Shown here piece by piece: positions 44,638 through 47,253 of a stretch of DNA of 64,000 bases. Position numbers and translations under genes: made by a program. Under the pieces are notes generated by a model. It saw only the letters and a list, made by a program, of their open reading frames with translations, searched no databases and had not been told where the DNA came from. Numbering within the stretch: the stretch's first letter is position 1; every line of letters starts with the position of its first letter. The stretch lies in the NCBI RefSeq assembly GCF_003334315.1, contig NZ_QOWR01000016.1. One strand, given 5' to 3'. Source of the DNA: Escherichia coli. Lineage in GTDB: Bacteria; Pseudomonadota; Gammaproteobacteria; Enterobacterales; Enterobacteriaceae.

Positions 44638-45516
44638 TTAGGCTTGCAGCTCCAGTCCTGCCAGCCGCCGCCAGTAGCCGTTACAGTCGCTGTTCGCCGT
44701 CAACGGCAGTGGTGCAGCGCCATTTTCATTAGCGCGGAAGGCGTCGAGCATCGCGAAAGTGTCAGTACCCTGCGGTGACAGGCGGACCACATCAACCAGG
44801 CCCTGCATGGATGCCAGCTCGTTACCGAGGTTGTAAACGTAGCCGCTCATGGTCTGAATGCCATTGAGTACAAACACTTGTTGGTTTTCCTGCGACAGCA
44901 CGTTGCGCCCGTTCGGATACTTAATGCAGCAGGTTTCACACTCATCTTTCGGGCGGTCTTCCGAACGCGCGGTAAAGCAGCGGGCGGAGTAGGCCAGCGG
45001 CAGATGACCGTAGCTCAGGACTTCCACTTCAAACTGGTTACGAATGCCCAGCTCATCGCACTGATTAAGCAGATTCACCAGCCAGTCGCGGGAAAGCTCC
45101 ACTGGCATACACCAGCGCATCATGCCCTGTTTGAGCAATATTTTCAGTGTCACCGCGTTGTAGCAGTTCAGCGCGTGCCCGGCGACGAACGGCAGTTTGC
45201 GTTCAGCGCACATATTCACCACGCCGAGATCGCTGGCTTCAATCAGAAACTCACCGTTCTCAACATAGCGTTTCAGTTCGCCCAGTTCAGATGATGCCTG
45301 CACCAGCGCCAGCGTGGAGAGCACAATCTGCTTACCACTCCCGGCGAGCGATTTTGCCATCTCCAGCCAGTCGCCAACTTTGGTTGCCCGACGCTTGCTG
45401 CATACCGCTTCACCAAGATAAATCACGTCGACGCTGCTGGTGGCGGCCTGCTGATAAAATTCTTCCAGCGTCTCTTTTGGCCAGTACCACAGCACTGGCC
45501 CTAAGGAATATTTCAT
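44638..45516 (-). CDS. ubiV: U32-family protein UbiV (YhbV), O2-independent ubiquinone biosynthesis
   Basis: Track ORF trimmed to MKYSLGPVLWYWPKETLEEFYQQAA giving 292 aa; peptidase U32 family with conserved Cys cluster; matches YhbV. Confidence 0.9.
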   Translation of the reverse strand: MKYSLGPVLWYWPKETLEEFYQQAATSSVDVIYLGEAVCSKRRATKVGDWLEMAKSLAGSGKQIVLSTLALVQASSELGELKRYVENGEFLIEASDLGVVNMCAERKLPFVAGHALNCYNAVTLKILLKQGMMRWCMPVELSRDWLVNLLNQCDELGIRNQFEVEVLSYGHLPLAYSARCFTARSEDRPKDECETCCIKYPNGRNVLSQENQQVFVLNGIQTMSGYVYNLGNELASMQGLVDVVRLSPQGTDTFAMLDAFRANENGAAPLPLTANSDCNGYWRRLAGLELQA

Positions 45517-45524
45517 TGCTTTTC

Positions 45525-46520
45525 TCACTGCCATTTACGGTGATATGCGCCAAGAGTGGTTTGCGTGCCTTCGGACATCGACCCGAGCGTCTCCATCCAC
45601 GCGCTTTGCGGTACAAAGTTTTGCGGATCGGCCTTACAACGGTCGATAGCCTGACGCCAGACTTTCGCCACCTGGCTGACATACGCCGGGCTACGCTGGC
45701 GGCCTTCAATTTTCACCGAAGCAATATTCGCCGCCATTAACTCCGGCAGCAGTTCCAGGGTATTGAGACTGGTTGGTTCTTCCAGCGCGTGATAGCGCTC
45801 GCCGTCCACCAGATAACGCCCTTTACATAGCGTCGGATAACCTGCGTTTTCGCCGTCCAGATAACGGTCGATCAGCACTTCGTTCAGGCGGGATTCCAGC
45901 CCCTGCGGCGTTTGTTGCCAGCGCACGAAACGGGCCGGAGAACACGCGCCTATGGTGTTGGGCGACTCACCCGTCAGATACGACGACAGATAGCAACGAC
46001 CTTCCGACATAATGCACAGGCTGCCGAAAGCAAAGACTTCCAGTGGTACAGGTGTGACCCGTGCCAGTTGTTTCACCTGATGAATCGACAACACGCGCGG
46101 CAGCACCACGCGAGCAACGTCAAAATGGCGATGATAAAAGTTAATCGCCTCTTCATTGGTCGCCGAAGCCTGCACCGATACGTGGCGCTCAATATGCGGA
46201 TAACGCTCGGCGGCGTACTCCAGCATGGCGAGGTCGGCGAGGATCAGCGCGTCGGCACCCAGCTGCGCCGCCATATCCACGGCGCGCTGCCAACGGGCGT
46301 AACCGTCCGGATGCGCAAAAGTGTTAATCGCGATGTGAAGTTTGCGGCGATGTTGATGGACAAAACTCACCGCTTCCTGCAATTTTTTCTCGGTAAAGTT
46401 AAGGCCGGCGAAGTGACGGGCATTGGTATCATCTTTTAGCCCGATATAAACAGCATCTGCGCCGTTTTCGATGGCCGCCTTAAGCGCCGGGAGATTTCCG
46501 GCAGGGCAGAGCAGCTCCAT
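45525..46520 (-). CDS. ubiU: U32-family protein UbiU (YhbU), O2-independent ubiquinone biosynthesis
   Basis: Track ORF trimmed to MELLCPAGNLPALKAAIENGADAVYIGL giving 331 aa; matches YhbU. Confidence 0.9.
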   Translation of the reverse strand: MELLCPAGNLPALKAAIENGADAVYIGLKDDTNARHFAGLNFTEKKLQEAVSFVHQHRRKLHIAINTFAHPDGYARWQRAVDMAAQLGADALILADLAMLEYAAERYPHIERHVSVQASATNEEAINFYHRHFDVARVVLPRVLSIHQVKQLARVTPVPLEVFAFGSLCIMSEGRCYLSSYLTGESPNTIGACSPARFVRWQQTPQGLESRLNEVLIDRYLDGENAGYPTLCKGRYLVDGERYHALEEPTSLNTLELLPELMAANIASVKIEGRQRSPAYVSQVAKVWRQAIDRCKADPQNFVPQSAWMETLGSMSEGTQTTLGAYHRKWQ

Positions 46521-46728
46521 AATTTTTCCTGAAGGTTGCGCTATCAAAACGCAAAAATGTTAACGAACTGGGATTTTAGTTAACCTTGCTGCGACAATTT
46601 TTGATTTAAGGCAGTTAAAGTTGTATTGGTGGTAGCAGCAATTTCATATGGAATTGTTGATTTATACCGCTATGTTATTTTTCTGATATGGCAAAATAGG
46701 ATGATTGTTGAAACAGGGAGTAAAACTC

Positions 46729-47253
46729 GTGTTGGATAAACTGCGTTCCCGTATTGTGCATTTGGGGCCATCTCTGTTGAGTGTACCGGTAAAACTGACG
46801 CCATTTGCGCTAAAACGCCAGGTTCTTGAGCAGGTCTTAAGCTGGCAATTCCGCCAGGCGCTGGATGATGGCGAGCTGGAGTTTCTTGAAGGCCGCTGGT
46901 TAAGTATTCATGTGCGTGATATTGACCTGCAATGGTTTACCTCGGTGGTGAATGGCAAACTGGTCGTTAGCCAGAACGCGCAAGCTGATGTGAGTTTTAG
47001 TGCCGACGCCAGCGATCTGCTGATGATTGCGGCGCGTAAACAAGATCCGGATACGCTCTTCTTCCAGCGTCGGCTGGTGATTGAAGGCGATACGGAGCTG
47101 GGGCTGTATGTGAAAAACCTGATGGACGCCATTGAACTGGAGCAAATGCCGAAAGCCTTACGCATGATGCTGCTGCAACTGGCGGATTTTGTTGAGGCGG
47201 GAATGAAAACCGCGCCTGAAACCAAACAGACATCGGTAGGTGAACCATGCTAA
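46729..47253 (+). CDS. ubiT: SCP2-domain lipid-binding protein UbiT (YhbT)
   Basis: 174-aa product from GTG start, (M)LDKLRSRIVHLGPSLLSVPVKL; divergent from ubiUV; matches YhbT. Confidence 0.85.
   Translation: MLDKLRSRIVHLGPSLLSVPVKLTPFALKRQVLEQVLSWQFRQALDDGELEFLEGRWLSIHVRDIDLQWFTSVVNGKLVVSQNAQADVSFSADASDLLMIAARKQDPDTLFFQRRLVIEGDTELGLYVKNLMDAIELEQMPKALRMMLLQLADFVEAGMKTAPETKQTSVGEPC

Follow-up and report, generated by a model that had tools for sequence, protein, structure and literature searches.

In Pseudomonas aeruginosa, ubiU, ubiV and ubiT form one operon controlled by the FNR homologue Anr. Their products constitute the same three-gene O2-independent ubiquinone (UQ) pathway as at the locus studied here, function in anaerobic respiration and are needed for denitrification (bioRxiv 10.1101/2020.03.22.002311). 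The ubiT-yhbS/ubiUV divergent promoter region of E. coli K-12, dissected in 2023 with reporter fusions and with site mutations in the chromosome, is the same object as the region described below (Arias-Cartin et al., mBio 2023, PMC10470549). Two Fnr sites, F1 and F2, have been published there. A ChIP-chip motif covering F1 was predicted as early as 2006 (PMC1802558), a ChIP-seq study of 2013 placed an FNR peak in the region with its summit at 3,299,421-423 (PMC3688515), and Fnr ChIP-chip in 2014 gave regions marked 'Activation' for both operons (PMC3974632).

At class II FNR promoters such as nirB, the activator site lies near -41.5, and this class took in 19 of the 23 promoters that were directly activated and had a known transcription start site (TSS) (Myers et al., 2013, PMC3688515). 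The ubi sites are placed alike, at -40.5 to -43.5 from the TSS, and the ubi promoters share with that class a recognisable -10 element, no good -35 element, a TTGAT half and T/A-rich flanks. They differ in keeping only 7 of the 10 core positions and one perfect half each, the promoter-proximal one in the case of ubiUVp and the promoter-distal one in that of ubiTp2; the second half of F2 is nearly gone.

Results

Gene layout and identity to reference strains

The window, that is, the whole 64,000-nt stretch of E. coli DNA that was analysed, carries ubiV (yhbV; 44638-45516, minus strand, 292 aa) and ubiU (yhbU; 45525-46520, minus strand, 331 aa), the latter heading the ubiUV operon. Both encode U32-family [4Fe-4S] proteins; UbiV serves O2-independent ubiquinone hydroxylation according to the RefSeq annotation of the K-12 locus. 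An intergenic region of 208 bp and 34% GC (46521-46728) separates ubiU from ubiT (yhbT; 46729-47253, plus strand, 174 aa), which encodes an SCP2-domain accessory factor. It is followed by yhbS (47247-47750, plus strand), a GNAT acetyltransferase gene by annotation and sequence. The gap between the ubiU stop codon and the ubiV start is 8 nt, and ubiT and yhbS overlap by 7 nt (ATGCTAA). The ubiT gene has the Shine-Dalgarno sequence GGGAG at 46716-46720 and a GTG start that is invariant in 81/81 orthologous loci, while in ubiU the ATG and, upstream of it, a CTCCAT...TTCCTGA block are kept across 15 genera. In K-12, RT-PCR showed co-transcription of yhbS with ubiT, and YhbS-SPA levels were Fnr-dependent; YhbS has no part in UQ synthesis (PMC10470549). 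A conserved hairpin over the yhbW ribosome-binding site, with its 5' arm at 44617-44631, was noted separately, as a small unpublished lead.

The protein identities were supported by NCBIfam equivalog matches of UbiU (557 bits, cut-off 440), UbiV (365 bits, cut-off 275) and UbiT (SCP2_dom_UbiT, 154 bits, cut-off 46.9), and Pfam PF02036 is recorded for UbiT homologues of 99% identity. All eight cluster-binding cysteines, as defined in PMC6747719, were found: C169, C176, C193 and C232 in UbiU and C39, C180, C193 and C197 in UbiV. The original prediction, made from the sequence by eye, had thus named the U32 and SCP2 proteins correctly, and its description of a divergent layout around about 200 bp (46521-46728), an overlap of yhbS with ubiT and a GTG start of ubiT agrees with the layout given above.

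The intergenic region is identical to that of MG1655 and BW25113. A 46400-46850 query matched BW25113 at 100% identity, and 5,425 of 5,426 complete E. coli genomes reached at least 99%; compared with MG1655, the window had 3 SNPs in 4,001 nt and none between the genes, and ubiV differed from the K-12 locus by one SNP. The intergenic region, the F1 and F2 sequences, the genes, the GTG start and the yhbS overlap are the same as in K-12 (PMC10470549), with no sequence difference. This is the ordinary E. coli ubiT/ubiU-ubiV locus, whose Fnr control is already published. The regulation, which the original prediction had implied to be an open question, was answered beforehand, and both outcomes that the prediction had named as refuting it came about: the intergenic sequence is that of reference strains with characterised regulation, and a formal matrix scan picks out an FNR site, an imperfect one, at 46601-46614.

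Half-sites and matrix scans

Several TTGAT half-sites and no good TTGAT-N4-ATCAA palindrome had been reported for the intergenic region, and both observations stand. TTGAT occurs at 46601 and 46657 and ATCAA at 46543; these three pentamers compare with 0.9 expected from dinucleotide shuffles (P(>=3) = 0.056), so that enrichment of half-sites alone is only marginal. None of the 14-mers of the intergenic region exceeded 7/10 matches to TTGAT-N4-ATCAA. When up to 3 mismatches to this consensus were allowed, the window contained 299 matches against 247 expected, and the search was set aside as too unspecific on its own. TTGAT at 46601 and at 46657 supplies the consensus half of the published Fnr sites F1 and F2, respectively; the lack of a perfect palindrome is real but is already explained by two imperfect, half-palindromic FNR sites.

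A position weight matrix (PWM) was built from 30 independent ChIP-chip FNR motifs, in a 14-nt version covering the core (63,987 window positions) and a 24-nt version with flanks (63,977 positions). Two perfect halves occur in only 1 of these 30 motifs, and at least 3 core mismatches in 10 of them; imperfect FNR sites are normal. Upstream of deaD, at 39990-40013, is the second-best match of the 24-nt matrix in the window; the distance of about 45 bp between this match and another published FNR ChIP-seq peak served as a sanity check.

A consensus scan for sigma70 promoters and terminators over 44500-46800 recovered none of the three published promoters, and its sole match (46547-46519) is not a known promoter. 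An Rfam search of 44300-47000 at E-values up to 1 returned just two sub-threshold chance matches, to a miRNA hairpin and a CRISPR repeat. A central palindrome considered as an RNA hairpin was rejected, as most of it precedes the ubiTp1 TSS and it is also upstream of the ubiUVp TSS. The 12-mer AGTTAAAGTTGT is present at 44606-44617 and 46613-46624; this was judged coincidental, because neither copy is conserved outside Escherichia.

F1 and the ubiUV promoter

F1 (46601-46614, TTGATTTAAGGCAG), the published site that activates ubiUVp, was a significant FNR matrix match. With the 14-nt PWM it scored 12.4 bits (training median 11.35; p = 2e-5) and ranked 4 of 63,987 positions, and with the 24-nt PWM it ranked 1 of 63,977. 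A matrix scan, as the original prediction had proposed, does single out this site, which is imperfect and not canonical: F1 retains 7/10 core positions, T2 and G3 of its weak half among them, and is no perfect palindrome. The best site in this peak has ln p -8.72 with the matrix of Myers et al., short of their genome-wide prediction threshold of -10.75, so that the locus would not be predicted de novo at that stringency (PMC3688515). Among the Fnr motifs under peaks in Table S6 of PMC3974632, none begins with 3299.

Comparison with published ChIP data placed the ChIP-seq summit within F1, which occupies 3,299,414-427 in U00096.2 coordinates. For conversion from U00096.2 to NC_000913.3 we assumed an offset of 1,977 bp, taken from the lengths of the two records. 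Expression ratios in Myers et al. were 0.07 for yhbU, 0.115 for yhbV and 0.49 for yhbT (PMC3688515). When TTGAT of F1 was changed to GATGA, UbiV production and Fnr induction were lost (PMC10470549).

By the published distance, the ubiUVp TSS is 36 nt downstream of F1 (PMC10470549), which puts the centre of the site at about -42.5 to -43.5; the TSS positions derive from one dRNA-seq study as quoted in that paper, and the centre positions computed from the published distances hold to within about 1 nt. With these literature TSSs, the sites at ubiUVp and ubiTp2 are both within 4 nt of -41.5, as in class II. The ubiUVp core (46564-46578, minus strand) has a putative -10 hexamer TAAAAT at 46578-46573, read from the sequence, and a TSS at about 46564-46566; the block GGGATTTTAGTTAACC at this core is at least 95% conserved.

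Conservation was examined in 81 sequences, namely the window and 80 other Enterobacteriaceae species; six further distant loci were found, and the divergent ubiU/ubiT layout was seen in only four of them. F1 keeps TTGAT in 81/81 loci and GGCAG in 80/81, and TTGAT-N4-GGCAG is retained in relatives with 65% and 52% UbiT identity. The invariance of the weak halves GGCAG (F1) and CCGC (F2), each kept in 80/81, and the persistence of GGCAG at 52% UbiT identity suggest selection for a specific sequence, not merely for a weak site.

F2 and the two ubiT promoters

F2 (46657-46670, TTGATTTATACCGC), the published site that activates ubiTp2, is 19 nt downstream of ubiTp1 and 33 nt upstream of ubiTp2 (PMC10470549), so that its centre computes to about -40.5 of ubiTp2. 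F1 and F2 are 56 bp apart, and ChIP is unable to resolve the two. The constitutive, aerobically active promoter ubiTp1 (46624-46637, plus strand) has a putative -10 hexamer TATTGG at 46624-46629 and a TSS at about 46637. The TTGATT of F1 (46601-46606), 17 bp upstream of this hexamer, would be its -35 element, and TTGATT-17 bp-TATTGR is kept in 72/81 species. For the ubiTp2 core (46692-46704, plus strand), the likely -10 hexamer is CAAAAT at 46692-46697, with a TSS at about 46704; the block ATATGGCAAAATA is conserved here. An anaerobic sigma70 ChIP peak at 3,299,327 corresponds to about 46701 in the window, near the ubiTp2 TSS. The putative shared -35 and the invariant non-consensus halves are further small unpublished leads.

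The 14-nt PWM gave F2 only 3.0 bits (p = 6e-3, ln p -5.05; rank 552 of 63,987). About 1.2 matches of this grade are expected by chance in a 208-bp region, and the score is indistinguishable from chance; F2 is effectively a half-site. What supports it is its position, its invariance in the 80 other Enterobacteriaceae species (TTGAT in 81/81 loci and CCGC in 80/81, 72-74 nt before the GTG) and published mutagenesis.

Alternative explanations

Could F2 be no direct FNR site at all, its TTGAT being needed in some other way, as part of the promoter or for another factor, and the Fnr effect on ubiT being indirect? The chance-level matrix score would fit such a reading, as would a right half that is ATCAA-like in 0/81 enterobacterial sequences and in none of the more distant relatives, and an invariant CCGCTAT block unaccounted for by FNR preferences; in the consulted portion of the published work on the locus, no EMSA or footprint showing direct binding to F2 by itself is reported. 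Against it, in a delta-fnr host pBAD-fnr strongly activated a ubiTp2 fusion that starts at window position 46634 (primer Ebp194) and hence is without F1 (PMC10470549). Substitution or deletion of F2 removed anaerobic UbiT induction and left basal UbiT in place, and Fnr induction was abolished when its TTGAT was mutated (PMC10470549). The spacing from TTGAT to the TSS suits a class II site at -40.5. This TTGAT never varies and keeps a fixed distance to the ubiT start (69-75 nt ahead of it in the relatives with 65% and 52% UbiT identity), and with flanks included F2 is the second-best 24-nt match of the region, at rank 95 of 63,977 window positions. We consider an indirect effect unlikely and retain F2 as a probable direct FNR site. 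That FNR control has been lost or altered in this strain, a thought prompted only by the missing perfect palindrome and with nothing found in its favour, has a negligible probability, being refuted by the intergenic identity to MG1655 and BW25113 and the near-uniformity across 5,425 genomes.

It is very improbable that ArcA, CRP, PdhR or YbcM, acting in the intergenic region, chiefly drives the anaerobic induction with FNR secondary. By consensus counting, the region contains no convincing TGTGA-N6-TCACA site for CRP, the best match (3/10 mismatches) being equalled at 352 other places in the window, and nothing convincing for NarL. For ArcA, the box was taken as direct TGTTA repeats at 11-bp spacing. 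At 46673-46688 there is a repeat resembling TGTTA-N6-TGTTA with one mismatch; it is one of 8 such one-mismatch repeats in the window, is not conserved among genera and does not amount to an ArcA box, and the ArcA ChIP-chip tables of PMC3974632 have no yhbU, yhbT or yhbV entry, unlike the Fnr tables. A PdhR-type palindrome (ATTGGTAACACCAAT) stands mid-region in Citrobacter and Salmonella, to which all 13 of the 81 loci with a GGTnnnACC core belong; the E. coli element TATTGGTGGTAGCAGCAAT lacks this core, has 3 mismatches to the 15-mer box AATTGGTnnnACCAATT and does not qualify as a PdhR box, and in the PdhR gSELEX paper no yhb gene is named in the main text, Table 1 of binding sites included (PMC7660256). 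On the side of another regulator, YbcM has a ChIP-exo peak between ubiT-yhbS and ubiUV (PMC8464067). The yhbU ratio of 0.07 (PMC3688515) and the abolition of UbiV by the F1 mutation alone (PMC10470549) speak against another main regulator.

Discussion

The region is very probably a compact back-to-back promoter module, already known from its characterisation in E. coli K-12. Others have shown Fnr occupancy by ChIP, Fnr-dependent expression and loss of induction upon mutation of each TTGAT. At low O2, the [4Fe-4S] FNR dimer would bind the two separate imperfect sites, each with one perfect TTGAT half on the plus strand and one non-consensus half. At F1, it would act in class II fashion on the leftward ubiUV promoter; without F1 or without Fnr, no UbiV is made. 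At F2, it would add anaerobic induction of ubiT-yhbS from the rightward ubiTp2. The third promoter, ubiTp1, located between F1 and F2, provides basal, O2-independent ubiT expression.

If TTGATT of F1 is the -35 of ubiTp1, Fnr at F1 would pass ubiT from P1 to P2 anaerobically. It is conceivable, though we hold it only tentatively, that the asymmetry of F1 and F2 is functional rather than degenerate and that, together with the shared -35, the region works as a promoter hand-over operated by FNR. Binding of FNR at F1 would then turn ubiUV on and ubiTp1 off simultaneously, and ubiTp2, driven from the conserved FNR half-site F2, would take over ubiT. The non-consensus halves might set an O2 threshold or bind a second factor.

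Beyond the K-12 study (PMC10470549), the present analysis adds matrix statistics, placement of the ChIP summit on F1 and conservation in 80 other species, together with the proposal that TTGATT of F1 may be the -35 of ubiTp1. As a discovery it carries little weight: the locus is published, as are its role in making ubiquinone independently of O2 and its control by Fnr. It serves as a calibration case: strongly regulated, real FNR targets commonly have no palindrome visible to the eye, and F2 goes unseen even by the matrix, being recognisable only through position and conservation. The invariant weak halves and a possible occlusion of ubiTp1 by Fnr at F1 bear on how E. coli tunes UQ synthesis across the O2 gradient.

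Organization of the ubiUV/ubiT locus

The sequence and its open reading frame listing placed ubiV (yhbV, 44638-45516) and ubiU (yhbU, 45525-46520) on the minus strand and ubiT (yhbT, 46729-47253) and yhbS (47247-47750) on the plus strand, in agreement with the RefSeq annotation in BW25113 and MG1655. The divergent layout with a spacer of about 200 bp described in the original prediction was confirmed, the ubiU/ubiT intergenic region spanning 208 bp (46521-46728, 34% GC). Two further details also held: yhbS overlaps ubiT by 7 nt (ATGCTAA), and ubiT starts at GTG, 8 nt downstream of GGGAG, a start retained in 81/81 orthologous loci (the window and 80 other Enterobacteriaceae species). 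A longer, TTG-started ubiT frame from the mechanical listing was discarded, its start not being conserved. UbiU, UbiV, and UbiT each scored far above the cut-off of their NCBIfam equivalog models, and all eight cysteines that hold two [4Fe-4S] clusters in UbiU/UbiV (Pelosi et al., 2019, PMC6747719) were found in the window proteins. Over 4,001 positions at and around these genes, the window and MG1655 differed at 3, all outside the intergenic region. A 451-nt query with the intergenic region at its centre was 100% identical to BW25113, and 5,425 of the 5,426 complete genomes of E. coli matched it at an identity of at least 99%.

Published Fnr sites in the intergenic region

The original prediction had described several TTGAT half-sites and no good palindrome, accurately so. 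TTGAT occurs twice (46601, 46657) and ATCAA once (46543), making three pentamers against 0.9 expected from dinucleotide shuffles (P(≥3) = 0.056), and the best intergenic 14-mer matched TTGAT-N4-ATCAA at 7/10 positions. The puzzle that this seemed to pose is already solved in the literature, and both kinds of refuting evidence named in the original prediction are at hand: a formal matrix scan picks out an FNR site, although an imperfect one, and the intergenic sequence is identical to that of reference strains with characterized regulation. According to Arias-Cartin et al. (2023, PMC10470549), the region contains two Fnr sites, F1 (TTGATTTAAGGCAG, window 46601-46614), 36 nt upstream of the transcription start site (TSS) of the leftward promoter ubiUVp, and F2 (TTGATTTATACCGC, window 46657-46670), located between the two rightward ubiT promoters, 19 nt past ubiTp1 and 33 nt ahead of ubiTp2. 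The mutagenic primers of that study swap exactly the two TTGAT pentamers. Mutation of F1 (mutF1) abolished UbiV production without O2, and mutation (mutF2) or deletion of F2 removed the anaerobic induction of UbiT while its basal level was retained; neither mutF1 nor mutF2 affected the opposite operon. The ubiTp2 fusion was strongly activated by pBAD-fnr; because it starts at window 46634 (primer Ebp194), it lacks F1 and is still Fnr-activated. The same study reports yhbS as co-transcribed with ubiT and without a part in ubiquinone synthesis.

Genome-wide data agreed with these assignments. Grainger et al. (2006, PMC1802558) listed yhbT/yhbU as a ChIP-chip target with the motif TTTAACTGCCTTAAATCAAAAATT, which is F1 with its flanks in reverse complement. 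Myers et al. (2013, PMC3688515) placed yhbUV among the directly FNR-activated operons, with expression ratios of 0.07 (yhbU), 0.115 (yhbV), 0.49 (yhbT), and 0.47 (yhbS). Federowicz et al. (2014, PMC3974632) reported Fnr ChIP-chip regions at 3,299,318-3,299,760 and 3,299,330-3,299,672, scored as 'Activation' of both yhbUV and yhbST.

Matrix scan for FNR

As the original prediction had proposed, FNR sites were sought with a formal matrix. A symmetrised FNR matrix was built from the 30 other motifs of Grainger Table 2, leaving out the ubiT/ubiU locus. With the 14-nt core, F1 scored 12.4 bits (training median 11.35; exact p 2e-5, ln p -10.8) and ranked 4 of 63,987 positions; with the 24-nt matrix it ranked 1 of 63,977 (18.2 bits; next best 13.2). 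F2 scored 3.0 bits (exact p 6e-3, ln p -5.05; rank 552 of 63,987) and ranked 95 of 63,977 with the 24-nt matrix, second-best within the intergenic region. Chance would supply about 0.004 matches as good as F1 and 1.2 as good as F2 in this region. F1 lies at 3,301,391-3,301,404 of NC_000913.3. We take the offset between U00096.2 and NC_000913.3 to be 1,977 bp. On this offset, F1 falls at 3,299,414-3,299,427 of U00096.2 and its centre on the Myers summit (3,299,421-423).

With the matrix of Myers et al., the best site under the ubiT/ubiU peak had ln p -8.72, short of the -10.75 that they required for genome-wide prediction. Of their 187 sites passing this threshold, only 63 coincided with a ChIP-seq peak, and relaxing it until every peak contained a motif raised the total to more than 10,000 sites in the genome (PMC3688515). 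Imperfect sites are typical for FNR: among the training motifs, 1/30 had two perfect halves and 10/30 had at least three core mismatches.

The matrix was also checked against its second-ranked 24-nt match in the window (39990-40013), which lay about 45 bp from another published FNR ChIP-seq peak, labelled deaD; an FNR-like site with one mismatch, TTGATTGCCATCAC, occurs at 39995-40008, between nlpI and yrbN/deaD. An FNR-like palindrome with one mismatch, CTGATCTTTATCAA (48585-48598; third-best 14-nt match, 12.9 bits), sits in a non-promoter position within the 3' end of yhbO, beside the end of yhbP; yhbO is marked 'Activated' in a Myers supplementary table (PMC3688515).

Conservation of F1 and F2

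A genome scan with UbiT supplied the 80 other species, in all of which ubiU and ubiT are divergent and 205-241 bp apart. Conservation in the alignments fell in discrete blocks: the ubiU ribosome-binding region; TGTTAACGA around the ubiUVp TSS; GGGATTTTAGTTAACC, containing TAAAAT, the putative ubiUVp -10; F1; GTATTGR; F2; ATATGGCAAAATA, containing CAAAAT, the putative ubiTp2 -10; and the ubiT Shine-Dalgarno with GTG, both -10 elements being read from sequence. TTGAT was retained in 81/81 loci at F1 and at F2, with GGCAG (F1) and CCGC (F2) in 80/81 each; conservation thus extends to the non-consensus halves, which do not drift. The F2-to-GTG distance was 72-74 nt in all species. The F1-F2 start-to-start distance was 65-67 bp in 70/81 sequences and 56 bp in Escherichia, whose species carry a deletion of about 10 bp, roughly one helical turn, between the two sites (46615-46656, compared with L006-L081). 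Distant relatives were obtained via a representative search. At 65% identity (L083), F1 was the same as in E. coli and F2 read TTGATTTAAGCCGG; at 52% (L084), TTGATGTAAGGCAG was accompanied by a bare TTGAT 69 nt upstream of the ubiT start; at 45% (L088), a single TTGATTCAGTGCAG lay between both genes. In all sampled lineages, F1 combined TTGAT with a (G/T)GCAG-type half, and F2 was at most a half-site.

Overlap of F1 with a putative ubiTp1 -35 element

As shown by published work, anaerobic FNR occupies the region and activates ubiUVp via F1 and ubiTp2 via F2, and ubiTp1 provides aerobic expression without Fnr activation. The published distances put the centre of F1 at about -42.5 to -43.5 and that of F2 at about -40.5, both class II positions. 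The TTGATT of F1 (46601-46606) is followed, after 17 bp, by TATTGG (46624-46629), with the ubiTp1 TSS at about 46637, an arrangement present in 72/81 species. We infer that these hexamers fit a -35/-10 pair for constitutive ubiTp1. If so, Fnr on F1 would cover the ubiTp1 -35 and occlude the promoter, and anaerobiosis would shift ubiT transcription from P1 (ubiTp1) to P2 (ubiTp2). No discussion of such occlusion was found in PMC10470549 under 'overlap' or 'repress'. That paper reports that mutF1 did not alter ubiT expression, a result that, per the Fig. 5F legend, appears to come from cultures without O2; as P2 would dominate there, it is no test of the hand-over.

The locus and its regulation are thus already known. 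What remains new is modest, namely that the non-consensus halves of both sites are invariant, that F1 overlaps the putative ubiTp1 -35, and that F2 is a conserved half-site for putative direct Fnr binding.

Other candidate regulators

No convincing CRP match emerged, the best intergenic one carrying 3/10 mismatches and being equalled at 352 other places in the window. An ArcA-type direct repeat (TGTTA-N6-TGTTA, one mismatch; TGTTATTTTTCTGATA, 46673-46688) falls between F2 and the ubiTp2 -10, with 8 such matches in the window; it was rejected as unconserved in other genera and without an ArcA ChIP-chip entry, the ubiT/ubiU operon genes being absent from both Federowicz ArcA tables (PMC3974632). 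For YbcM, a ChIP-exo peak within the intergenic region is on record (PMC8464067). Two GTTAAC palindromes (46559-46564 and 46579-46584), 20 bp apart, flank the ubiUVp -10 and TSS, both in blocks whose conservation among genera is at least 95%; they may represent no more than promoter and initially transcribed sequence, or else a candidate site of another factor.

Between F1 and F2, most genera carry the palindrome TATTGRYG-N-CRYCAATA (window 46624-46642). In 13/81 loci, all Citrobacter or Salmonella (L007-L014, L016, L018-L020, L025), it reads ATTGGT-nnn-ACCAAT, about 22-40 nt right of F1. This is a perfect PdhR box core, matching AATTGGTnnnACCAATT at 12/14 positions, equal to the accepted E. 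coli grcA site; the Escherichia version, TATTGGTGGTAGCAGCAAT, is broken and lacks the GGTnnnACC core. The literature searched gave no link of PdhR to ubiT or yhbT.

A predicted hairpin upstream of yhbW

The spacer that separates the ubiV stop codon from the yhbW start (44558-44637, minus strand) contains an inverted repeat of 14-17 bp, AGCTCACTTTGTTA ... TAACAAAGTGAGCT, with an inner palindrome, CTTTAAT-GCAGT-ATTAAAG. The spacer RNA folded at -28.8 kcal/mol (z = -6.07), and no Rfam family matched the hairpin. Its 3' arm stops 3 nt short of the yhbW ATG, so the predicted hairpin would mask the yhbW Shine-Dalgarno. Among the 72 Enterobacteriaceae loci in which a yhbW start could be recognised, the 3' arm ACAAAGTGAGC was near-invariant and the 5' arm GCTCACTTTGT visible in about two-thirds; in Klebsiella, Raoultella, Kluyvera, and similar loci a longer spacer occupies all 110 nt compared. 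The Myers ratio is 6.78 for yhbW compared with 0.07 for yhbU (PMC3688515), so yhbW seems to be oppositely regulated. We speculate that both arms would be present only on ubiUV read-through RNA, in which case the O2-dependent monooxygenase YhbW would stay untranslated in anaerobiosis.
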